Below are positions 2,586 through 59,218 of a DNA stretch of 64,000 nt, one piece after another. The DNA lies in the NCBI GenBank assembly GCA_017448245.1, contig JAFSLV010000028.1:32441-96440 (forward strand), given 5' to 3'. Within the stretch, counting starts at the first letter, position 1, and each line of letters starts with the position of its first letter. The translations under genes were made by a program, and so were the position numbers. The notes below the pieces were generated by a model. The model saw only the letters and a list, made by a program, of their open reading frames with translations. It searched no databases and was not told the DNA's origin. Origin of the DNA: Lachnospiraceae bacterium (GTDB lineage: Bacteria; Bacillota; Clostridia; Lachnospirales; Lachnospiraceae).

Positions 2586-4169
2586 TTATTTGTGTGATGT
2601 GACGGCCGTAACCGCCGCTTTTAAGACCAGATTGACCAGCAGAATCATGACGGAGACAAAGGCCGCACTCTCCATGAGCAGCTGCGCCTCAAACTGCGTG
2701 ATCATGAGCGCGACGGGCTTTGGCGAGGGCGGTGCGAGAAACGATACCGCGGAAATCGTCATCATCGAATTGACAAAGAAAAACGCGAACATCTCGAGTA
2801 ACGTCATGCGTACCTTGGGCACAATCACGTCGCAGATGATCCGCAGCCTGGCGATTCCGAGGCTCCTTCCCACTGCTTCGAGATGCTCGTTGACCTTGAC
2901 GAGGGAGTTGTACATCATCAGATAGGGCGAGGCAAAAAAGTGGACCGTGTTGACCATGAGGATGAGCACGACCGTGCCGTAGATGACGCGTCCCGAAAAA
3001 AAGATCACGTAGGAAAGACCGAGAACCAGACCGGGAATCGCCATCGCGGACATCGAAAGCAGATGCAGTGCCCGCGAAAAACGGCTCCTGACGCGTGCGG
3101 TCATATAGGCACACACAAAGGCGACCAGCGTCCCGAGGAGTCCGGTGAGTACCGCATAGAGCAGAGAGTTTTTCAGATACGTGAGCGCGCCCCGGTTGAT
3201 CGTCTTTTCGATGTGATAGAGCGTAAAGGCCGGATTGACCGGATACTTGGTCGCAAAGACCATCAGGCAGAAGGATACGATCGGCGCGATGACAAAGACC
3301 CCGAGCAGGGAGCAAAAGCAAAAAGCGAGCAGATCCCTGCCGCCCTGCTTTTCGGGTATGACGGGTGTTGTCACAAAGGCGCTCTGCGCGTCCTCCGGAT
3401 GCAGCACGTCCACGACAAAGGCGATGACCGCGGGAATCAGAAGCAGTACGCCGATTGCGCTGCCCTGCCCGTAATCGAGCATACCGACCGCACGGTTGTA
3501 CATGAGGACGGAGAGCGTGATCTCCTTTCCGCCGATGAGGAGCGGTACGCCGTAGTCCGTCATGATCATGCTGAAGACCGCAAAGAACACGGAGATCATG
3601 GTCTTTCGCAAAAAGGGCAGCGTGATCGCAAAAAACCTGTCTCTTCCGGAGATCCCGAGCACCTTCGCCGCCTGATACGGCGAAGCGTCCTCGTAGCGCA
3701 GTATTCCCGTAAACATCAACAGCGCCACCGGAAACGCGTACATCACGGAACCCGCGATGATCCCCGCATAACCGTAGATCCCGCTGCGCAGCCCGAGGAG
3801 TCTCGTGACCAGACCGTTGGTGCCAAAGAGCGCGACCAGGCCGAATGCGTGTGAGATCGAGGGGATGAGCATCGGCACGACGAGGAGCATCCGGAAGAAC
3901 GCCTTTCCCTTCATCGCCGTGCGCTCCAGGGCAAACGCCGCCGCCATCGACAGCGCCATCGTCACGACGGTTGCGAGAAAGGAGGTGACGAGCGAATTGA
4001 CAAGTGCCTGTGAAAATTGCGGAGAGGCAGCCAGCGACGAGACTTTTTCCGGCGTGATGCGCGCAAACATGCGCAGAATCGGAAATGCGACACCGGTCAG
4101 AAAAAACAGGGCGATCGAGATCTGTATCACGCGCTGCGCGATATTCTTTTCCCTGCGATATGCGCTCAT
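2586..4169 (-). CDS. ABC transporter permease with two BPD_transp_1 repeats (FbpB/PhnU-like)
   Basis: Hydrophobic, with two EAA-like loops (YQAAKVLG, EAVGRSLG). Confidence 0.88.
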   Translation of the reverse strand: MSAYRREKNIAQRVIQISIALFFLTGVAFPILRMFARITPEKVSSLAASPQFSQALVNSLVTSFLATVVTMALSMAAAFALERTAMKGKAFFRMLLVVPMLIPSISHAFGLVALFGTNGLVTRLLGLRSGIYGYAGIIAGSVMYAFPVALLMFTGILRYEDASPYQAAKVLGISGRDRFFAITLPFLRKTMISVFFAVFSMIMTDYGVPLLIGGKEITLSVLMYNRAVGMLDYGQGSAIGVLLLIPAVIAFVVDVLHPEDAQSAFVTTPVIPEKQGGRDLLAFCFCSLLGVFVIAPIVSFCLMVFATKYPVNPAFTLYHIEKTINRGALTYLKNSLLYAVLTGLLGTLVAFVCAYMTARVRSRFSRALHLLSMSAMAIPGLVLGLSYVIFFSGRVIYGTVVLILMVNTVHFFASPYLMMYNSLVKVNEHLEAVGRSLGIARLRIICDVIVPKVRMTLLEMFAFFFVNSMMTISAVSFLAPPSPKPVALMITQFEAQLLMESAAFVSVMILLVNLVLKAAVTAVTSHK

Positions 4170-48486: not shown

Positions 48487-48612
48487 TGTAGTTCTCCCCT
48501 GTAGAAGTGGTGTTCCTTACCGCTGCATCCTGTGTCTTATACCATATACCAAATCGCATCGCTCATGCTGCGCATTTCGCGCTGCTTTTTTCCTCATGTC
48601 TGCCTGCTTTCA

Positions 48613-48658
48613 AACAGGTACACGGATCTGCGAGTAAACTCGCATCCGTGCACCTGTT
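48613..48658. repeat. Long imperfect hairpin (REP-like or terminator) after fliD
   Basis: AACAGGT-a-CACGGAT-ct-GCGAGT-aa-ACTCGC-ATCCGTG-c-ACCTGTT. Confidence 0.6.
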
Positions 48659-48670
48659 CTCAATCCATGA

Positions 48671-50209
48671 TTATCCAAAGTATCCTGACATATTCTGCTG
48701 CACCTGGTTGAGCTTGGACATCGCCGTCTCCATCTTGGCAAACTTGGCGTAGTACGCGTCCTGCTTTTTGTTGAGGCGCTCCTGTGCGGTCGCGATCTGC
48801 GTGTTGTAGCTCGAGTACTGCTGTGCCATGAGCTTGTCCTCGTAGATCGTAAAGGACGAGGAATACGTCGTGCCCTTCATCTGGTTGAACATCGTATCAC
48901 GCAGCTTCTGCGCGAGCTTCGAGAAGAAGTCCGCCACGGCGTCCGGATCGGAATCGATCATCGCCTGCAGCTTATCCTCGGCGGACTTGCTGACGATATC
49001 GTCCTTATCCCCGTCGATGTGCAGCACGCCTCTTTCTTCCTTGGCCGTTGTCAGATAAGAACCGGTGTTGATACCGAAATCCGACAGCGTCATCTCCTTC
49101 TTGGAGCCGTCGCCGAGCACGACCTCAAACTTCTGCTGCATGAGGCTCTTTAATCCGCTCGTGATCTCGCCGAGTGTCGAATCCTTGCTGAGCAGGCCGT
49201 CCTTGATCTTCTTTTCCCACTCCTCGACCTCGCGGTCGCTCATCGCGTACTTCTCATCCTCGGTGAGCATCTTGAACTTGGCGCTGGAGTCCGCATAGTA
49301 CGAGGTATCGAGCGTCTTGATCATCTCGTTGTACTGCTTGAGCAGATCCTTGACCATGTCATAGATCCCGGAGGTATCCGTCTTGGTCGTGATCGTAAAT
49401 TCCTTGTCGGTAACTTCGTTGGCCGTGATCTGCAGTCCGTTGATGTCAAAGGTGCCGTCCGCGTCAAAATACTTGACACCGTTCAGCTCGATTTCGGCAT
49501 CGCTGCCGTCGTTGTACGTGCCGTTGAGAAGGCCCAGCTTTTCGGCAAGGACGCTGTTCTCGAATGTAAAGTTCGCAAAATTACCGGTCGTTGCCGCGGA
49601 CATATAGATCCTGCCCTGGTTGGCATCAAAATTGGCATTGAACCTGGCGCTCGAGCCGTCGACCTTTGCGCCCTTGATCGCCGAGATCACCTCATCAATC
49701 GTCGAATCCTTGGTAAACTTCAGACTAATGGTGCCCTCGTTATCCTGGCTCTCAAACTCTCCCGCCGCATTATAATTGAATTTGCCGACATTGATCTTGA
49801 GCTCGTACTCTCCGCCGTCTGTCAGGCCGAGATCCGCGAGCGTCTTGGAACCGCTCGTTGCGCCTTCGATCTTGTCGCCGGTCGTAAACGCACTCGACGC
49901 GATCTTGTTGACCTTCATCGTCTGCGTCGCATTCATCGCGGCATCCTTGGTCGTGATCTTCACCGCATTCGGGTTGGTTGCCGTCGTCACTTTTTTCATG
50001 AAGGACGACTTCATGCTCATCGTATCGAGCGGGCCGTTATAGAACTTGGTAAAAGCCGAGTTCATCGACTTCCACGCGTCCTGTTTCCACTCGAGGCGTT
50101 TCTGGTTGCCGGTCAGATTGTCGACCTTTTTCTGATAACCGGAGACGAGCGATGTGACCAACGACTCTGTATCCAGTCCCGAACTCAATCCCGTTACTCT
50201 GTTAGGCAT
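48671..50209 (-). CDS. fliD: Flagellar filament cap FliD
   Basis: TGLSSGLDTESLV, GSDAEIELNG, YYAKFAKMETAMSKLN. Confidence 0.95.
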   Translation of the reverse strand: MPNRVTGLSSGLDTESLVTSLVSGYQKKVDNLTGNQKRLEWKQDAWKSMNSAFTKFYNGPLDTMSMKSSFMKKVTTATNPNAVKITTKDAAMNATQTMKVNKIASSAFTTGDKIEGATSGSKTLADLGLTDGGEYELKINVGKFNYNAAGEFESQDNEGTISLKFTKDSTIDEVISAIKGAKVDGSSARFNANFDANQGRIYMSAATTGNFANFTFENSVLAEKLGLLNGTYNDGSDAEIELNGVKYFDADGTFDINGLQITANEVTDKEFTITTKTDTSGIYDMVKDLLKQYNEMIKTLDTSYYADSSAKFKMLTEDEKYAMSDREVEEWEKKIKDGLLSKDSTLGEITSGLKSLMQQKFEVVLGDGSKKEMTLSDFGINTGSYLTTAKEERGVLHIDGDKDDIVSKSAEDKLQAMIDSDPDAVADFFSKLAQKLRDTMFNQMKGTTYSSSFTIYEDKLMAQQYSSYNTQIATAQERLNKKQDAYYAKFAKMETAMSKLNQVQQNMSGYFG

Positions 50210-50994: not shown

Positions 50995-52182
50995 CTATTG
51001 ACGGTCAACGAGGATCTGATCGAGCATGTTTTTCAAAATCTGTTTGTAATCATAATGCTCCAGCACTTTTTTGCGCCCTGCGGCGGCGATCCGCTCCCGT
51101 TCCCCGTCATGCGTGAGATAATAGGCGCATTTTTCGAGCAGATCCTCCGGGGTCGTGGCGATCACCAGTTCTTCCCCGTCCGCAAACCGGGCAGCGACCT
51201 CCTCCTGGAATGTCGTGATGAGAAAGCCTCCGGCCGCCATCACGTCGAGGACCCGCAAAGGAATCCCGGAAATGATCGTACGCAGGGTCAGATTGAGATT
51301 GATCTTTGCGCGGTGAAAGATCCGCGGCATCTCCCGGTAATAATCCGCAAAACCGTGCGCCCGCACCCCCTCGGGGATCTTCTGGTCCTTTCTGGTATAC
51401 AGGTCCACTTGAAAATACTTTGCCAGCATCGCAAGGAGCTTTGGCCGCTCGTTTTTGGTCACCTTCTTGCGCAGAAGGTCGCGCAACACGATATTTTCAT
51501 CCATCGTGAAATACTCGGTCCGCTGAATATTGACATACTCGTGCATCCTTGCGATCTGCGCGGCGCTCACAACGGATTCTTCGCCGATCATGTCATAACC
51601 GAACACATGCTCCTGTGCAGCGATCACTCCGTCAAAATAACCCTTCAGATCCGGCGGCAGATAGGTGATCTGGTCGTAAAAATCATATTCGTCGTCATAG
51701 AGCGTTCCGAGAAAGCAGATATCATACGCATACGGCTTGTTTTCGAGCCCCTCCGTCATCCTCCGCACGCGGTCTCCCTTGACCCCGAGCGGCGAATAAT
51801 GCATCGTCTCATGACCCTGAGCGCGCATCATCTGCGCCTGCTTGCGGTCAAAGGTATAGATATGGTTGCGGGGATTGTCGATCTCGACACTCGTCAGCGG
51901 CAGAAACGGCGAATCAAACACCAGGCACAGATACGGCGTATCCGTCTTTTTGCAGGCGATCGAGACCACGGGAAAAAAATTGTAAGAAAAGACAAAGTCG
52001 TAGTAAGGCGCGCCGTTCTCCTTTTTTCGGAGCTCCTCAAGCAGCGCCTGCTCAAACGTATCGTCATGCCCGAGATTCTGCCACTCGTAACGGATGGCCG
52101 TGACATCACAGCCCATCTCCCGGAAGCTGTCGATGCCGTCCTGTGCGTTAAATTCGTCCCAGGTGTAATATAAGACTCTCAT
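50995..52182 (-). CDS. CgeB/DUF3880-type glycosyltransferase inside the core flagellar cluster
   Basis: VFSYNFFP, LVFDSP, AKINLNLTLRTIISGIPLRVLDVMAAGGFL. Confidence 0.9.
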   Translation of the reverse strand: MRVLYYTWDEFNAQDGIDSFREMGCDVTAIRYEWQNLGHDDTFEQALLEELRKKENGAPYYDFVFSYNFFPVVSIACKKTDTPYLCLVFDSPFLPLTSVEIDNPRNHIYTFDRKQAQMMRAQGHETMHYSPLGVKGDRVRRMTEGLENKPYAYDICFLGTLYDDEYDFYDQITYLPPDLKGYFDGVIAAQEHVFGYDMIGEESVVSAAQIARMHEYVNIQRTEYFTMDENIVLRDLLRKKVTKNERPKLLAMLAKYFQVDLYTRKDQKIPEGVRAHGFADYYREMPRIFHRAKINLNLTLRTIISGIPLRVLDVMAAGGFLITTFQEEVAARFADGEELVIATTPEDLLEKCAYYLTHDGERERIAAAGRKKVLEHYDYKQILKNMLDQILVDRQ

Positions 52183-53071: not shown

Positions 53072-55273
53072 TTATATGTAATCCATCAAAGATGTCGTCA
53101 TGATCTTTCCGGTGGCCTGGAGGCTCGACTCGTACGTGAGTCTGGCCATCGTGAGCATCGTGCCGGCCTCCGCGAGATCCACATCCTCATTTTCGGACTG
53201 CAGTTCCTTGAAGGTGGCGGTCTGGTCCATGAGTCTCGACTCAATGAGATCGAGGCGCTTGGAGCGCGTGCCGTTGACCGTCACTGCGTTGTTCGCCATG
53301 TCGATCGCCTTGGTGACGCCCGTGATCTTGGCACCGAACTCGTCCTTCATGATATCCGTCAGATAATCGTAGGCTTTCTGGGCGGCGTAGATTTCTTTCT
53401 GGATACTTTCCTGGTCGGTCTGCACATCCGTATTGGCCAGCTCCTGCTTCAGGATATTGAGCCGGTTGTCCACATCCGCCATCTGGTCAAGGATCCTGCG
53501 CAGATCCTGCGCGTCGCGCTTGACCTCATTGGTAAAGACCTCGCTCGCCATCGTGTTGACCTCGATCTTCTGGTTGTAACCGATGTCATAGCGCATGATG
53601 TGGTCGGCGTTGCCGATGTTGTATTTGATTCCTTCATTCGTGCAGGCAAAGAGATTTTCCGGTCTCGTGTCGCCCTTGACGAAGTTGGTCTTGTCGTAGA
53701 CCGCGTTCAGGGTATTGGCATTGATGATGTCCTTTAAGGAGGTCAGTTTGTCGTTGAGTTGCTTGCTGAAGAGGATCTCACCGGTTGCGGCATTGACAAC
53801 AAACTGCTTTTCATATGTCGGATTCGTTCCCGTATAGGTGTCATGGAGTTCTCTGTATACGGCATCGATACTGTCCGCCGGCGTGGTGGCATCGATCACC
53901 TCATACGGATGGAGATCCGTCTCTACATAGGAAGAGTGTACAGCACCGCCGGAGTTCAACTGGACGATGCTGCGTTTGTCGTTGCCGTCTGCGTCCGTCC
54001 TGTCCTCGCTTGAAAGAGTGTACGTGCCGTCCGTATTGACCGTAATGAAATAGTCATTGCTCCCCTGATTGACCTTCATCGTATACGGCTGTTTGGTCTC
54101 ATCCGACAGTGGGATCCGGATCACTTCCTGCGAGCCGCCCGCCTCCGCCGTCATCTTGACCTCGGACACCTGTGCCTCAGTGACCGTCGTCGTCGCGGCC
54201 AAAATCTTATCATAGCCTGCCGGTGACGCAGCGGGAAAATCGACCGGCTTGTCGGGGTCGGAACCGTCATAGATGACACCCTTGGCGTTGACATAGATTT
54301 TTCCGGTGTAGGTGCCGCTGCCGGGGTTACCCTGCTTGTCCGCAGTATACGTGACTTCATACTTTGCCGGATCCGTTCCGGATGCCGGAATATAGGTTGC
54401 CTGATAGGTCTCCTCAGTGCCGTCGGGATTCTTGATCGTGATATCGACCGGACCGCTTCCCGTCCCGTCGTCCACCGGAAGATGCACGGTGTGGCTTGCG
54501 CCGTCGTCCGTCGTAAAGGACAGATTGACCATACCGACATTCGATGCCGCGGGCAAAACCGTCGATGCGGCGGAAATCGCCATGTTTTCACGGAACTGCA
54601 GGGTAAAGTCATTCATGTCCGAGGTACCGGTGATATCCAGCTTGTCATACGACAAGCGCAGTCTCCCGACCGTATACAGGCTGACATTTGATTCCAACAT
54701 CGGATTCGTAAGCTCATCCCCGCTCGCAAATTCGCCCATACTCGTCACGCGGTCCGAGGTATCGATATGACTTGCGTTGAACTCATCCTGGATATCCTCA
54801 TACTTTTTCGAGGTATCCTCCATAAAGGAGAGTGACATGTCCGTACGATAGCCGGTAAAGGCGTAACGTCCCGCGTAATCGACATTGCCGACATTGTAAT
54901 ACTCATCCGCCAGCTGCTCGATCTGGGTGACGATCGCCTGCCAGTCGGTGAGGGTCTTGTATTTGTCGGGACCGGACGTCACGAGTTTTTTGAGATCGAC
55001 CAGAACGGAGCTGTCGCCGCTGATCGAGCTCAGTGCGCCCTCCGTAACCTCGAGCCACGCCGCGGCATCCTTGGCGTTCTTTTCGTAGTACTGTGAGAGC
55101 TCCGTTACGTTGGAGCGCAGCCTGAGCGCGCGGATCGCAATGACGGGATCCTCGCTCGGGCGGTTGACCTTCTTACCGGTCATGATCGATGTCGTGATAT
55201 CATTTTCCTTGACCTTGTTGTTGTTGATATTGTACAAGGAATTGTTTTGCATGATTTTATTGGTGATGCGCAT
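53072..55273 (-). CDS. flgL: Hook-associated protein 3 (FlgL), long form
   Basis: MRITNKIM, TGKKVNRPSEDPVIA, SENEDVDLAEA, KIMTTSLMDYI. Confidence 0.95.
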   Translation of the reverse strand: MRITNKIMQNNSLYNINNNKVKENDITTSIMTGKKVNRPSEDPVIAIRALRLRSNVTELSQYYEKNAKDAAAWLEVTEGALSSISGDSSVLVDLKKLVTSGPDKYKTLTDWQAIVTQIEQLADEYYNVGNVDYAGRYAFTGYRTDMSLSFMEDTSKKYEDIQDEFNASHIDTSDRVTSMGEFASGDELTNPMLESNVSLYTVGRLRLSYDKLDITGTSDMNDFTLQFRENMAISAASTVLPAASNVGMVNLSFTTDDGASHTVHLPVDDGTGSGPVDITIKNPDGTEETYQATYIPASGTDPAKYEVTYTADKQGNPGSGTYTGKIYVNAKGVIYDGSDPDKPVDFPAASPAGYDKILAATTTVTEAQVSEVKMTAEAGGSQEVIRIPLSDETKQPYTMKVNQGSNDYFITVNTDGTYTLSSEDRTDADGNDKRSIVQLNSGGAVHSSYVETDLHPYEVIDATTPADSIDAVYRELHDTYTGTNPTYEKQFVVNAATGEILFSKQLNDKLTSLKDIINANTLNAVYDKTNFVKGDTRPENLFACTNEGIKYNIGNADHIMRYDIGYNQKIEVNTMASEVFTNEVKRDAQDLRRILDQMADVDNRLNILKQELANTDVQTDQESIQKEIYAAQKAYDYLTDIMKDEFGAKITGVTKAIDMANNAVTVNGTRSKRLDLIESRLMDQTATFKELQSENEDVDLAEAGTMLTMARLTYESSLQATGKIMTTSLMDYI

Positions 55274-55279
55274 GTGATT

Positions 55280-55381
55280 TGAATAAGCCTCCGTCAAGCG
55301 GACATGTGTGAGCGGGGCGATTTCCGAATGTTTGTAGGATTGCGGGAGTGCGCAGCACGGAGCAATCCGCAGGCTTATTCA
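55280..55381. repeat. 102-bp element bounded by perfect 11-bp inverted repeats, lying between the flgL SD and start codon
   Basis: TGAATAAGCCT (55280-55290) and AGGCTTATTCA (55371-55381); internal stem GGATTGC/GCAATCC. Confidence 0.8.
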
Positions 55382-55397
55382 TACCTCCTTTCTTACA

Positions 55398-57314
55398 TTA
55401 TACGCCGGTCTGCAGAATCAGTCTGTCGTAGATCTCCGTCAGTGTCTGGATCATCTTGCTCGACAGTGTATACGCGTTCTGGTACTGCACGAGCGAAAGC
55501 GCTTCCTCATCGCGGTCGACGCCGGAGACCGAGAGTCTCTGGTTGTCGATTGTCAGCTCCAGTGAGGAATACGTCGCGAGCATCGTGCCGGAATTATTTT
55601 TATTCATCGAGATGTCCGCCTGCACCTTGCTGAGGAATTCCCCGGCCTTGGCATTGCGGAAAATCGTCTTCTGCGAGCTCATGTCAAAGAGTGCCTGTGC
55701 GGTGCCCGTCTGCTCCGGTCCTTCGCTCCTGTCGGACTTGGTGGGAAGTCTCGTCGGATCATTTAAGAGCACATCGTTGACCTCAAAATTGGAGGCCGTG
55801 AGATACTGGTATTTCTTGTTGGTCGTCGTCAGCTCCTCGTAGCTGTATTGCGCGCTCGAATCGAGGAGCTTGGCGCCCGTCAGCAGCATCACCGGATCAT
55901 CGGAATTGGCGGTATAGCCGCCCATCACGACCTCGTTGGCCGCCGCCGCGTAGCAGCGGATCCACTCGTTCATCTGGGTCATATAGTACGGGATACCCTG
56001 ATAGTTGACCGCACGGCCGATGCGGACGTCCGCTTTGCTGTTAATCTCGGAAGCGAGGATCGCCTTGTCCCCGTCTTCCGCCGGCGGCTTCACAAAAAAC
56101 GAATAGGAGCCGTCCGCATTGTAATTCCAGTCGGTATAGTAGTAAGTGCGGGAGCCGATCGTGATGCGGCTTTCATCCGCCACATTGCTCTTATTCATGT
56201 CCTGCAGGTAAGCCGGCATGGACTCCGCCGTAATCTTCACTTCGTACAGTCCCGCGTGCGGATCGGTGGCAGGCAGCGCCTGCGGCACCGTGACACCGCC
56301 ACCCGTCGTCGTCGTGGCGATCGTATCCGCCTTCCCGTGAAAATACTGTGCGTTATTCCCATCCCGGATATCCACCAGCCCCTGGAGCTTTCCGCCCATC
56401 AGCTGGTTGCCGAGATCAAAGGTCCCGAGATAATTGGTATCACCGTCCTTGTAATTGGACGACACCCACTTGACATCATAGAGACCGTCCACGTCGCTCT
56501 GGTTCATGCGCTCATCCGGCTCTCTCGCGATGCATACGAGCTGCCGGTAGGAGGTATCATCCACCAGGAGGTCTCCGCCCGCGATATGGATCGTAAAGCG
56601 TGTCAGACCCGTTTCTCTCGTCGGGTCGTTGGTATCCGTGACCTTGACTTCCTTTGTCTCGACCGAGACATAACCGGAGAGCTCATCGAGCAGCACGTCT
56701 CTCTTGTCTCGCAGGTCGTTGGCATTGGCGCCGGTCAGTTCGATTGTGTTGATCTGCTGGTTTAAGATCACGATCTTTGACGCGATCGTATTGATGTTGT
56801 CACAGGCGAGCTTGATCTCGTCGTTGGTCGTCTGCTGCAGCTGCTTGAGATTGTCGGAGGTATTGTTAAAATACTCCGTCAGCGAGCGTACGCTGCCGAG
56901 ATAATTGGTCTTGGAATCATCCGTCTTGTTGGTGAGAAACGTCTGCAGATCCGCCTGCATCCGCGTGAACAGAGACGAGAAACCGGCACCCACGTCATCC
57001 TGGAAATAACGCTCGATCAGATCGTTGTAGTAGTCTCTCTGTTCGTATTTACCCAGTGATGTCTCGTTGGTGCGGTATCTTTCATCATAAAAGGCATCGC
57101 GCACACGTTCGATCGCCAGCGTGTCGACACCGGCGCCCGCGCATCCGTATTTGGTAAAGACGCGTAAGGCATCCGAGGCCTCCTGTTCGACCTTTTGTCT
57201 GCTGTATCCGTCGGTTGTGGCGTTGGCGATATTGTTGCCGGTGGCAAGAAGAGCGGCATTTGCCGCACGCAATCCCGATGCCGCGATGTTCAGTCCGAAA
57301 AATTGTGAAGGCAT
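55398..57314 (-). CDS. flgK: Hook-associated protein 1 (FlgK), copy B
   Basis: FGLNIAASGL, NNIANA..GYSRQ, SVSGVDRDEE. Confidence 0.95.
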   Translation of the reverse strand: MPSQFFGLNIAASGLRAANAALLATGNNIANATTDGYSRQKVEQEASDALRVFTKYGCAGAGVDTLAIERVRDAFYDERYRTNETSLGKYEQRDYYNDLIERYFQDDVGAGFSSLFTRMQADLQTFLTNKTDDSKTNYLGSVRSLTEYFNNTSDNLKQLQQTTNDEIKLACDNINTIASKIVILNQQINTIELTGANANDLRDKRDVLLDELSGYVSVETKEVKVTDTNDPTRETGLTRFTIHIAGGDLLVDDTSYRQLVCIAREPDERMNQSDVDGLYDVKWVSSNYKDGDTNYLGTFDLGNQLMGGKLQGLVDIRDGNNAQYFHGKADTIATTTTGGGVTVPQALPATDPHAGLYEVKITAESMPAYLQDMNKSNVADESRITIGSRTYYYTDWNYNADGSYSFFVKPPAEDGDKAILASEINSKADVRIGRAVNYQGIPYYMTQMNEWIRCYAAAANEVVMGGYTANSDDPVMLLTGAKLLDSSAQYSYEELTTTNKKYQYLTASNFEVNDVLLNDPTRLPTKSDRSEGPEQTGTAQALFDMSSQKTIFRNAKAGEFLSKVQADISMNKNNSGTMLATYSSLELTIDNQRLSVSGVDRDEEALSLVQYQNAYTLSSKMIQTLTEIYDRLILQTGV

Positions 57315-57411
57315 GATATCCGGTCCTTTCCCTGTACCCTTGCCGCATGCCCTTCCGTGGGTCCGACATCCCTGCAGAATCCGTTCTGGCGGGTTTACAT
57401 ATTCTGTCAAT

Positions 57412-57505: not shown

Positions 57506-59218
57506 TTATGCCAGGCTATTCAGCAGATGGTCGAGCATCTCGCTCACCACGTTGATGTATCTGCTCGATGCGTTAAAGGCGTTCTGGAACTGGATCATGA
57601 ACTGTAGCTCCTCATCCTGGTTGACGCCGTGGACCTCTTCCCTTGCGCTCGCGATGCCGTCCACCGTCAGCTCCTGGAACTCCATGATGCCCTTGTAGAT
57701 CGAGCCGCTCGTTGCGACCTGCGTGCACAGCGCGTTATAGTAGCCGCGCAGCGAGTTTCTTGTGGCGACATTGGGATTGAGCACGTAGTTTTCCGCGGAA
57801 AACGCTTCCTTCATCGCGGCGATCGCCGCCTCGTCATGGTCACCCGTGAGCGTGCGGAAGGAAAAGAGCGTCGGATCCTTCTGCAGCTTGTCGTTGATGA
57901 CCGTATTGGTGACGGAGAGCCCCATGCGGTTTAAGCCCGCCAGATGCTCATCGTCGATCTTGTAGCCGAGTCCCAGTGTCGGATCCGCGACCTCAAAGAG
58001 GATCCAGTCGGCGGTATCGCCCTCTCCGGAGATCGTCGCGGGATTGGACTGCGCGTTGCGCATGACCTCGTTGATTGCCATGCACGTATTGTGGAAGAGC
58101 ATGTCAAATTCCGCTTCCATATTCATGATGATCGACTGTGCGATATTCTCGTTATAAAACGCATTGGACGCGTCGTCCTTGATGTCGTGGTAGTTGGCGT
58201 AGTGGTCACCTCTGGCAAGGAGGGTCGAGCGCAGGCTCCCGACGTCCGTGCGCATCGCGCTGGAGACCTGGAGCCTTAAGTCGATGACCTTCGCGCCGTC
58301 GATGTTCAAATACTTTTCCATTACGGGTGTGCCGGTTGGATCACCCGGCGGAATCCACTGCAGATTGCCGTACTGGTCCGTCGCCTGCCTCTGGTCTTCC
58401 TTGGCCGCAAATTCCCAGTACGGCGTATAGAAGTGATCGCAGCTGTCCGACGTATCGAGACCGATATGATGCACGGAATCCGTCATGACAAAGGCCGTTC
58501 CTTCGATGGAAACGGTCACGACACGGAGCGGATCCTCTTGGTATTCAATGTCCACATATTTGGAGAGTTCGTCCAGAATCTCATTCCGGCGGTCACGCAG
58601 GTCGTTGGCATGCTCGACACCGCCGCCCTCGATCCGGGAGATCGCCTTATTCAGCTCCAAGAGCTCGTCGCCGTAGGCATTGATCTTGCTTACGATGTCT
58701 GCGACGTTATTATTCATGCGGTTCTGGTAATCCTGAAAACCCTTGTAGACCGCCTTTCCCCTGACCAGAAATTCATTGGCCCGGTTGACAAACTGGGCCT
58801 GGTAGGTCGCGTCCGTCGGATCCTTGCTGAGCTCCTGGATGGCGGTCCAGAGATTGTTATAGGTATCGGCAAATTCCGCACCGTTGAGTTCCTGCAGCTG
58901 GTCTTCGATCTCCTTCATCGTATTGTAGGAGACCTCATAAAAAGCACTCCTGCCGCCTTCGAGGCGGTAGGATTTGTCGAGGAAGATATCCCTCACCTGC
59001 TTGGTATTGTTATATACGACGCCCAGACCGTTCTGCATCGGGCCGTTCATGTTGTAATCGACCTTGATGGTGTTATACTCCATCGTGCCCTGCGTCACCT
59101 GCTGCCTTGTGTACGCGTTGGTGCCGATGTTGGCCATGTTATGCGCCGTGGTATTCAGTGCGTTCTGTGATGTTCTCAGTCCCGAGGAACCGACGTATAA
59201 GTTTGAAAAAAGAGACAT
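57506..59218 (-). CDS. flgK: Hook-associated protein 1 (FlgK), copy A
   Basis: LYVGSSGL, AHNMAN...YTRQ, HGVNQDEE. Confidence 0.95.
   Translation of the reverse strand: MSLFSNLYVGSSGLRTSQNALNTTAHNMANIGTNAYTRQQVTQGTMEYNTIKVDYNMNGPMQNGLGVVYNNTKQVRDIFLDKSYRLEGGRSAFYEVSYNTMKEIEDQLQELNGAEFADTYNNLWTAIQELSKDPTDATYQAQFVNRANEFLVRGKAVYKGFQDYQNRMNNNVADIVSKINAYGDELLELNKAISRIEGGGVEHANDLRDRRNEILDELSKYVDIEYQEDPLRVVTVSIEGTAFVMTDSVHHIGLDTSDSCDHFYTPYWEFAAKEDQRQATDQYGNLQWIPPGDPTGTPVMEKYLNIDGAKVIDLRLQVSSAMRTDVGSLRSTLLARGDHYANYHDIKDDASNAFYNENIAQSIIMNMEAEFDMLFHNTCMAINEVMRNAQSNPATISGEGDTADWILFEVADPTLGLGYKIDDEHLAGLNRMGLSVTNTVINDKLQKDPTLFSFRTLTGDHDEAAIAAMKEAFSAENYVLNPNVATRNSLRGYYNALCTQVATSGSIYKGIMEFQELTVDGIASAREEVHGVNQDEELQFMIQFQNAFNASSRYINVVSEMLDHLLNSLA

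Follow-up and report, generated by a model that had tools for sequence, protein, structure and literature searches.

A Clostridiales-1 repeat between the Shine-Dalgarno sequence and the start codon of flgL in a Lachnospiraceae bacterium: a candidate hairpin-bridged ribosome-binding site

Introduction

REP/BIME, ERIC, Correia/NEMIS, RUP/BOX and bcr1-type repeats are intergenic palindromic repeats or miniature inverted-repeat transposable elements (MITEs). The Rfam family Clostridiales-1 (RF01699) was originally described as a sizeable structure with four stems that occurs very frequently in human-gut DNA, is not cis-regulatory and has no known function (Weinberg et al., 2010, PMC2864571). Split ribosome-binding sites have been described for genes 38 and 25 of phage T4, where the Shine-Dalgarno (SD) sequence and the AUG are linearly too far apart and a stable structure lies between them (Nivinskas, 1999; Malys and Nivinskas, 2009; PMC3014915). 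The hairpin of gene 38 shortens the distance from 22 to 5 nt, that of gene 25 from 27 to 11 nt, which was validated by mutations, as destabilising ones lower translation (PMC3014915). Here we describe the flgK-flgL junction in a stretch of 64,000 nucleotides from a Lachnospiraceae bacterium (GenBank assembly GCA_017448245.1, contig JAFSLV010000028.1, positions 32,441 to 96,440; the whole stretch is called the window in the following), at which a Clostridiales-1 repeat separates the SD of the flagellar gene flgL from its start codon. An earlier note on this DNA had drawn attention to an inverted-repeat insert at this place and had named phage T4 as a precedent for initiation across a hairpin; the split sites of genes 25 and 38 do resemble the flgL arrangement (PMC3014915). 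Sequences numbered with an L are contigs or reference stretches from other genomes.

The insert upstream of flgL

On the minus strand, the junction reads GGCGTA-TAA-TGT-AAGAAAGGAGGT-A-(TGAATAAGCCT ... AGGCTTATTCA, 55381-55280)-AATCAC-ATG(55273)CGCATCACC. The flgL ATG lies 109 nt past AAGAAAGGAGGT, and the gap between the GGAGG core (55384-55388) and the AUG is 110 nt. The 102 nt of the insert are bounded by a perfect 11-bp inverted repeat (55371-55381 with 55280-55290), which extends to 14 bp at 93% complementarity. All coordinates and counts of the earlier note proved correct, be it for the SD, the 41-aa open reading frame (ORF) that starts right behind it, the distance to the flgL ATG, the 11-bp repeats or the 102 bp. 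An independent gene call on the identical ENA contig likewise starts flgL at ATG 55273 and predicts 733 aa, and MRITNK is the N-terminus of every FlgL homologue examined. TTG 55297, which the earlier note had considered as another FlgL start, was rejected: it lacks an upstream SD, lies inside the repeat, and all homologues begin with MRITNK. Gene callers tend to be misled at this gene: 19 aa too many were assigned to the L123 protein, and in the window it is TTG 55297 that opens the longest ORF.

The Rfam search that had been proposed for the insert gave an answer. Using cmscan, RF01699 was matched on the plus strand at 55284-55377 with 47.5 bits, which is 0.5 bit short of the gathering score of 48, at E-values of 1.4e-9 for 351 nt and 2.5e-7 for the whole window. 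The closing stem P1 of the model is the very 11-bp inverted repeat. Of the four stems that make up the family architecture, only P1 and P4 are intact in the window copy, which is devoid of 59 model positions comprising P2 and of 23 positions belonging to the 5' strand of P3; the P4 hairpin is near-identical to the consensus and its core is exact at 55338-55367 (+). Consequently, the window copy is a decayed derivative of Clostridiales-1 and not a complete member. It shares with the family P1, the P4 core GATTGCGGGAG...CGGAGCAATC, the host range of Lachnospiraceae and gut, and an orthologue in L129 with all four stems. It differs from the family by the loss of P2 and half of P3, by its minority orientation, antisense to the operon, and by its placement inside a translation initiation region, which is undescribed for Clostridiales-1 and was found at none of the other copies listed. 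A second copy in the window, located between fliD and fliS, reached 31.7 bits (E 0.0044); its P2 and P3 are recognisable while P4 is lacking.

Taken alone, the inverted repeat does not stand out statistically. Perfect inverted repeats with arms of 11 bp or more and loops of up to 100 nt occur six times in the window, Markov resamples gave a mean of 2.4 seeds, and the z-score of the 151-nt fold was -2.0. That the feature is nevertheless real follows from the Rfam match over the whole window, from the excess depth of its core in metagenome contigs and from orthologous sites in relatives, both occupied and empty.

Occupied and empty junctions

In nine related junctions the SD-ATG unit is intact; there is either no interruption at all, or unrelated inserts lie upstream of this unit. 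They read TAA-AAGAAAGAAGGTATCCC-ATG in L124 and L125, AGAAAGAAGGTAACCC-ATG in L128, AAAGAAAGAAGGTAACCC-ATG in L152 and ...AAGAAAGAAGGTACTCC-ATG in L122, while further empty junctions are present in L153, L126/L154, L127 and L130-132. If the element is removed from the window, AAGAAAGGAGGTA(T)CAC-ATG remains, which has the same architecture. Since SD and ATG are contiguous in the empty junctions, the upstream AAGAAAGGAGGT is the ancestral SD of flgL and the repeat was inserted between this SD and the ATG. Thus the empty alleles bear out the claim that the insert splits the true flgL SD from its start codon. The SD/element junction GGAGGTATGAATAAGCC was also sought in metagenome contigs, where all 19 matches were ordinary gene starts (M-N-K-P...) and none a flgL locus. 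In the RNA runs X12-X14, where just diverged relatives are represented, no contig was found to span the junction.

Besides the window, two junctions are occupied. L129 contains a full-length copy of about 190 nt in the same position and orientation, scoring 85.2 bits on the strand opposite flgL. In L123 (1501-1557), a 50-nt remnant is found, again in the same position and orientation, which the runs X5 and X6 show as a 55-nt skip. The ancestor of the window copy was a full copy like that of L129, from which the segment between two GTGAGC repeats was deleted, and the deletion in L123 has other end points, as it retains GCATGGCTCAC, which is lacking in the window. Close to the junction, the genes on either side share 98-99% identity between window and L123. 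Therefore both deletions are recent and independent, and P1 was spared by both. Common to the three occupied alleles are the SD plus 2 nt, P1, 6 nt and the ATG. The 6-nt linker differs between window (AATCAC) and L129 (ATCACA) by two 1-nt indels that offset each other, so that its length stays the same. The only arm change, from C to T in L123, leaves a G-U pair in the flgL sense strand, whereas the opposite strand would have A.C at this place. It is one of three substitutions by which the L123 remnant differs from the window copy; through the other two (CTT to AGT), P1 gains an additional 4-bp helix as a cap.

The surrounding sequence differs between the alleles as well. All three occupied alleles have GGAGG as flgL SD, whereas GAAGG is present in five empty ones (L124, L125, L128, L152 and L122). 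This may represent a compensatory strengthening of the SD, observed in two independent lineages only. The gene itself is intact; the first 150 aa of FlgL are identical in window and L123 and the underlying 450 nt are 98.9% identical, a pattern which indicates that flgL is under purifying selection in the occupied lineages. The ORF opened by the ATG next to the SD (hereafter the decoy ATG) is not conserved in frame or peptide: the window has it out of frame with flgL, L123 has it in frame, and in L129 its length is different. In L123 the gene caller chose this ATG, leading to a protein of 749 aa with the 19-aa extension MNKPAWLTHVRVTEVYSNH.

The history of the insertion is less simple than its position. 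Over the parts that both have in common, the element of the window and that of L129 show 88% identity, and 100% over 34 nt adjoining the 3' arm, while the flanking genes are only 78% and their third positions 52-54% identical; both elements are each other's closest relatives among the copies listed. Any one of three processes would account for this similarity: purifying selection acting on the insert, recombination that transferred the allele, or insertion that happened more than once at this site. Mosaic and mutually discordant trees were obtained for the C-terminus of FlgK and the N-terminus of FlgL; the occupied alleles are not monophyletic in them, and L126, the nearest relative of L129, is without the element. 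Window and L123 differ by 13% over the C-terminal 300 aa of FlgK and are 80% identical over the whole FlgL, which points to recombination in the variable domains of these proteins. The tree pattern may go back to a single ancestral insertion followed by losses, to the transfer of an allele or to two separate insertions at one site. The three occupied alleles, being orthologous, stand for one, at most two, insertion events.

The junction attracts other inserts too, all of them located upstream of SD and ATG, which stay together as an intact unit. A GC-rich double hairpin of 60 nt occupies L122:1325-1403, an insert of about 150 nt with the long palindrome GTTTATAGTAAACGAAAT...ATTTCGTTTACTATAAGC is found at L154:566-765, and a further one at L126:1445-1500. 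Table 1 lists the features of the window.

Table 1. Positions of the junction features and of the second repeat copy within the window
Feature	Positions	Strand	Remarks
flgK stop codon TAA	55400-55398	-	start of the 124-nt flgK-flgL intercistronic spacer
Ancestral flgL SD, AAGAAAGGAGGT	55394-55383	-	GGAGG core 55388-55384; aligns with AAGAAAGAAGGTA-N4-ATG of the uninterrupted L124/L125, L128, L152 and L122
Clostridiales-1 (RF01699) repeat, 102 nt, internally deleted	55280-55381	+ (Rfam orientation), antisense to flgK-flgL	cmscan
Closing stem P1, 5' arm in mRNA sense, UGAAUAAGCCU	55371-55381	-	pair probabilities 0.93-1.0
Closing stem P1, 3' arm in mRNA sense, AGGCUUAUUCA	55280-55290	-	inverted-repeat search and folding
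P4 hairpin, family-invariant core GATTGCGGGAG-N9-CGGAGCAATC	55337-55368	+	in the high-copy segment; absent from the L123/X5/X6 allele
Internal GGAGG, candidate alternative SD	55288-55292	-	14 nt from the ATG of flgL; predicted to be buried in the P1 3' arm
41-aa out-of-frame ORF from the decoy ATG	55257-55382	-	ATG 1 nt past GGAGG; in frame with flgL in L123
6-nt single-stranded linker AAUCAC, P1 to flgL AUG	55274-55279	-	L129 counterpart ATCACA, also 6 nt
flgL (hook-associated protein 3), 733 aa, starts MRITNK	53072-55273	-	ORF and independent gene call
Second, degenerate Clostridiales-1 copy	48547-48672	-	begins at the fliD stop codon, co-oriented with fliD, without P4

Predicted fold and route of initiation

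Folding with ViennaRNA gave P1 pair probabilities of 0.93-1.0 in the mRNAs of both window and L123, while AAGAAAGGA of the SD was 0.8-0.94 unpaired. With P1 closed, the single-stranded spacer predicted between the SD and the flgL AUG consists of UA and AAUCAC, which are the 8 nt that the earlier note had counted. For comparison, 582 Lachnospiraceae genes yielded 153 GGAGG-to-ATG distances with a peak at 7-9 nt (86/153), and the bridged spacing falls within this local optimum. The following sequence of events can be envisioned: a Clostridiales-1 repeat was inserted, opposite to its Rfam orientation, into the 6-nt SD-AUG spacer of flgL within the polycistronic flgK-flgL mRNA. P1, with its 11-14 bp, would fold and turn the insert into a side-branch, the mRNA then reading GGAGG-UA-[stem]-AAUCAC-AUG. 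By regaining a spacing of 8 nt, 30S subunits bound to the ancestral SD could reach the flgL AUG. Foldability would have made the insertion tolerable, and later internal deletions shortened the insert while P1 was spared.

We regard such a split initiation of the T4 gene 25/38 type, in which the flgL AUG is reached from the ancestral SD across the folded repeat, as the likeliest route, a judgement we hold with some but by no means full confidence. That ribosomes use the bridged SD in vivo is suggested by the predicted fold together with the allele comparison, and the spacing restored by the closing stem probably explains why the insertion was tolerated. Several observations weigh against this reading. 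The minimum-energy fold extends past P1: GGU at the end of the SD is paired to AUC, and AUGU immediately behind the flgK stop forms a weak pairing with the flgL AUG, leaving an unpaired probability of 0.03-0.07 for the AUG. Since the fold extends over the end of the SD and the AUG, the insert may lower initiation rather than be neutral. The 8-nt spacing is no independent evidence of selection, because it arises automatically if a self-complementary insert enters a 6-nt spacer and 2 nt (AT) are added. Because the occupied alleles are orthologous and trace back to one or two insertion events, the conservation of P1 carries little statistical weight; besides, deletions inside hairpins tend to spare the outer stems for mechanical reasons. 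Finally, the 34 nt of perfect identity between window and L129 include the internal GGAGG and would also fit a function of this motif as SD.

If compared to the T4 sites, the flgL junction is similar in that a subset of related genomes has the site split while it is contiguous in relatives. The resulting spacings are 5 and 11 nt in T4 and, as predicted, 8 nt at flgL. In T4 a dedicated hairpin of 15-20 nt does the bridging, whereas the flgL insert measures 50 to about 200 nt and belongs to a dispersed repeat. In addition, flgL is a flagellar gene on a bacterial chromosome, known here from its sequence and a predicted fold. Processing of P1 by RNase III was set aside, as 11-14 bp are short for this enzyme.

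Alternative explanations

The internal GGAGG could serve flgL directly whenever P1 opens, be it through breathing, through the helicase activity of the ribosome or co-transcriptionally before the 3' arm pairs, and the upstream SD would then be a relic. The motif is present in all three occupied alleles, belongs to the perfectly conserved 34-nt stretch whose flanking genes reach just 78% identity, and its distance to the start codon is kept in L129. The earlier note had placed it correctly, 14 nt from the ATG and within the 3' arm. However, a 14-nt spacing equals background locally (1/153), and the motif is predicted to be paired in P1, with unpaired probabilities of 0-0.03 for four of its five bases. 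As it adjoins the P1 5' arm in Rfam orientation, it was inherited from the element and did not newly evolve, and an upstream SD that is stronger in occupied than in empty alleles would be unexpected for a relic. Overall, we consider this route unlikely, yet the most serious of the alternatives. A different start from the same mRNA is conceivable if the decoy AUG were translated: ribosomes would unwind the element, stop at UAA 55259-55257 and re-initiate backward at the flgL AUG 14 nt upstream, while L123 would produce an N-terminally extended FlgL. The strong SD immediately upstream, the position of the stop 14 nt past the flgL AUG and the in-frame AUG picked by the gene caller in L123 fit this idea. 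Concerning the SD followed by ATG 55382, the positions of the earlier note were right, but only 1 nt separates GGAGG and ATG, a gap that local genes hardly ever use (2/153). Moreover, the last two bases of this AUG overlap the 5' arm of P1, partly burying it in the stem as the note had said; frame and peptide change between window, L123 and L129, and the MRITNK start is common to all FlgL homologues. Translation from the decoy is thus quite improbable.

The insert might also have an active role. It might act as a regulatory device, either as a fold-dependent switch responding to temperature or to a protein such as CsrA, encoded 3 kb downstream, or as a plus-strand Clostridiales-1 RNA that is cis-antisense to the flgL initiation region. 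A function at RNA level is suggested by the orientation bias (47 vs. 17 among the copies listed) and the strong covariation of the family; the element is 88-100% conserved between window and L129, as opposed to 52-54% at synonymous sites of the flanking genes, and csrA and fliW are part of the same gene cluster. In contrast, no promoter-like site was found on the plus strand in the scanned region 54900-55800, the single match being on the minus strand. P2 and P3 are destroyed in the window and P4 is lost in L123 too, so only P1 persists at the flgL site. GGGAG and CGGAG of the element read CUCCC and CUCCG in the mRNA and provide no CsrA-type GGA, such motifs being confined to the two GGAGG sites, and nine relatives do without the insert altogether. 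We rate a regulatory role as a slim chance, though not as slim as translation from the decoy. At the other extreme, the insertion might simply cripple flgL translation, being tolerated or in transit to gene loss, and bridging would be unneeded, as about 11 FlgL subunits suffice per flagellum. In line with this, the SD (at GGU) and the AUG are partly covered in the predicted fold, and unrelated inserts accumulate at this junction elsewhere (L122, L126, L154). But flgL is intact and under purifying selection in the occupied lineages, the insertion persists although the flanking genes diverged to 78% identity, and the SD was strengthened to GGAGG. Furthermore, some route of initiation is still required, so that this proposal mostly collapses into the others and is the least credible of all.

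Clostridiales-1 as a repeat family

To return to the repeat itself, its core (55309-55369) has a 5- to 40-fold depth over the flanks if gut-metagenome contigs are mapped on the locus, and dozens of these contigs diverge at both core edges. An exact-pattern scan of reference genomes for the P4 core revealed at least 120 stretches; those listed are nearly all from Lachnospiraceae, often several per genome and some in tandem. The closest relatives of the window FlgL likewise belong to Lachnospiraceae and to metagenome-assembled genomes of Butyrivibrio. Among the matches listed, a typical copy comprises 155-185 nt, while minimal forms of 44-62 nt with P1 and P4 recur (L010, L043, L076, L105). In an alignment of 67 full copies from these matches, compensatory changes were found at 25 of 32 consensus pairs, and GATTGCGGGAG-N(7-16)-CGGAGCAATC was invariant in 67/67, a pattern by which the copies had been chosen. 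The sequence of the closing stem varies between copies with complementarity kept. When G-U and A-C were counted over the family alignment as a test of strand, the outcome was 36 vs. 28, a difference too small to be decisive.

Positional statistics were obtained for about 125 family copies among the matches listed (L002-L121), with gene calls from a crude codon-usage finder. None of these copies lies within a gene. With respect to tandem flanking genes, 47 are co-oriented and 17 anti-oriented, the flgL copy having the minority orientation. Of the co-oriented copies, 18/56 begin no more than 15 nt from the stop codon of the gene upstream, compared to 1/26 of the anti-oriented ones, and starting at a stop codon when co-oriented is the real positional habit of the family. 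The 5' arm often holds TGA or TAA (ATGATACC, TGAAAGC, TATAAGC), and in co-oriented copies it may itself provide the stop codon of the upstream gene. L129 contains a second copy (3995-4090, +) with 48.6 bits, above the gathering score, which begins 2 nt past the flgL stop; flgL of L129 is bracketed by two Clostridiales-1 copies of opposite orientations. The earlier note had suspected a small mobile or REP-like element that targets ribosome-binding sites. The first half of this suggestion stood, as the insert is a copy of a dispersed, multi-copy and self-folding repeat and an insertion relative to relatives. The second half failed: in 0/112 other element/gene-start pairs listed is the SD split from the ATG, the SD-ATG unit always being intact beyond the element, and no bias toward ribosome-binding positions was found among these pairs.

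Like the palindromic repeats and MITEs named above, Clostridiales-1 elements are small (about 45-185 nt), multi-copy, strictly intergenic and terminally self-complementary, are co-transcribed with their neighbours, occur sometimes in tandem and give rise to minimal forms by internal deletion. With REP elements they share the habit that co-oriented copies often begin at the upstream stop codon, and being multi-copy, extragenic, palindromic and often located just 3' of stops, they match the description of REP/BIME-like repeats. They differ from palindromic repeats and MITEs by a closing stem in place of a fixed terminal inverted repeat and by the lack of a detectable target-site duplication. Flank matches equalled the shuffled expectation for k = 1-4 among 96 copies listed, and the element ends at the flgL site show no more than an ambiguous AT repeat of 2 nt. 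Four stems and an invariant internal-loop hairpin look more like a functional RNA than like a transposase substrate. A cut-and-paste MITE was rejected for the missing target-site duplication and for arm sequences that differ between copies. In the ATGAAAG subfamily (for example L023, L026, L040, L043, L105, L116, L118), TTAC(T) is found on the 5' side of the closing stem at a distance of 0-3 nt; this motif is reminiscent of the TTAC targeted by IS608-type single-strand transposases, or may merely be part of the element. Members of the ATGATACC subfamily (for example L012, L060, L063, L074, L091, L104) are often directly followed by a second conserved hairpin repeat, GGGGTCAAAAGACCTTTTGACCCC-AACATC, without a T-run, and the dispersed unit may be composite.

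Significance

The element family, with its unknown function in Rfam, and the type of bridging are both already known; new is their combination, together with a natural allelic series. To our knowledge, split and hairpin-bridged ribosome-binding sites are textbook curiosities from two T4 genes. The flgL locus would show that a bacterial chromosome can acquire such a site in one step, when a self-complementary repeat inserts, and nine empty and three occupied alleles of differing length provide natural controls at the same place. One might speculate further that Clostridiales-1 elements are mobile, self-folding inserts which are "translationally transparent" through their closing stem and can become fixed between SD and start codon, selection having kept only the bridging stem in the flgL series of empty, about 190, 102 and 50 nt. 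This broader proposal is tentative and we judge it less probable than its opposite. If it held true, flgL would have the first split ribosome-binding site that is chromosomal and was generated by a repeat, and a first functional handle would be gained on an RNA motif that dates from 2010 and is still an orphan. In any case, Clostridiales-1 is recast as a dispersed, indel-prone, strictly intergenic and orientation-biased repeat which often abuts stop codons, has minimal P1+P4 forms and leaves no target-site duplications.

Further features of the window

Upstream of flgL, two flgK-like genes are arranged in tandem on the minus strand (55398-57410 and 57506-59218), both with FlgK_D1 domains. Long ORFs occur opposite to real genes, for example at 50998-52173 (+), where 391 aa are antisense to a glycosyltransferase gene of 395 aa. 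Such ORFs are artefacts of composition, and ORF length alone is unreliable in this genome.

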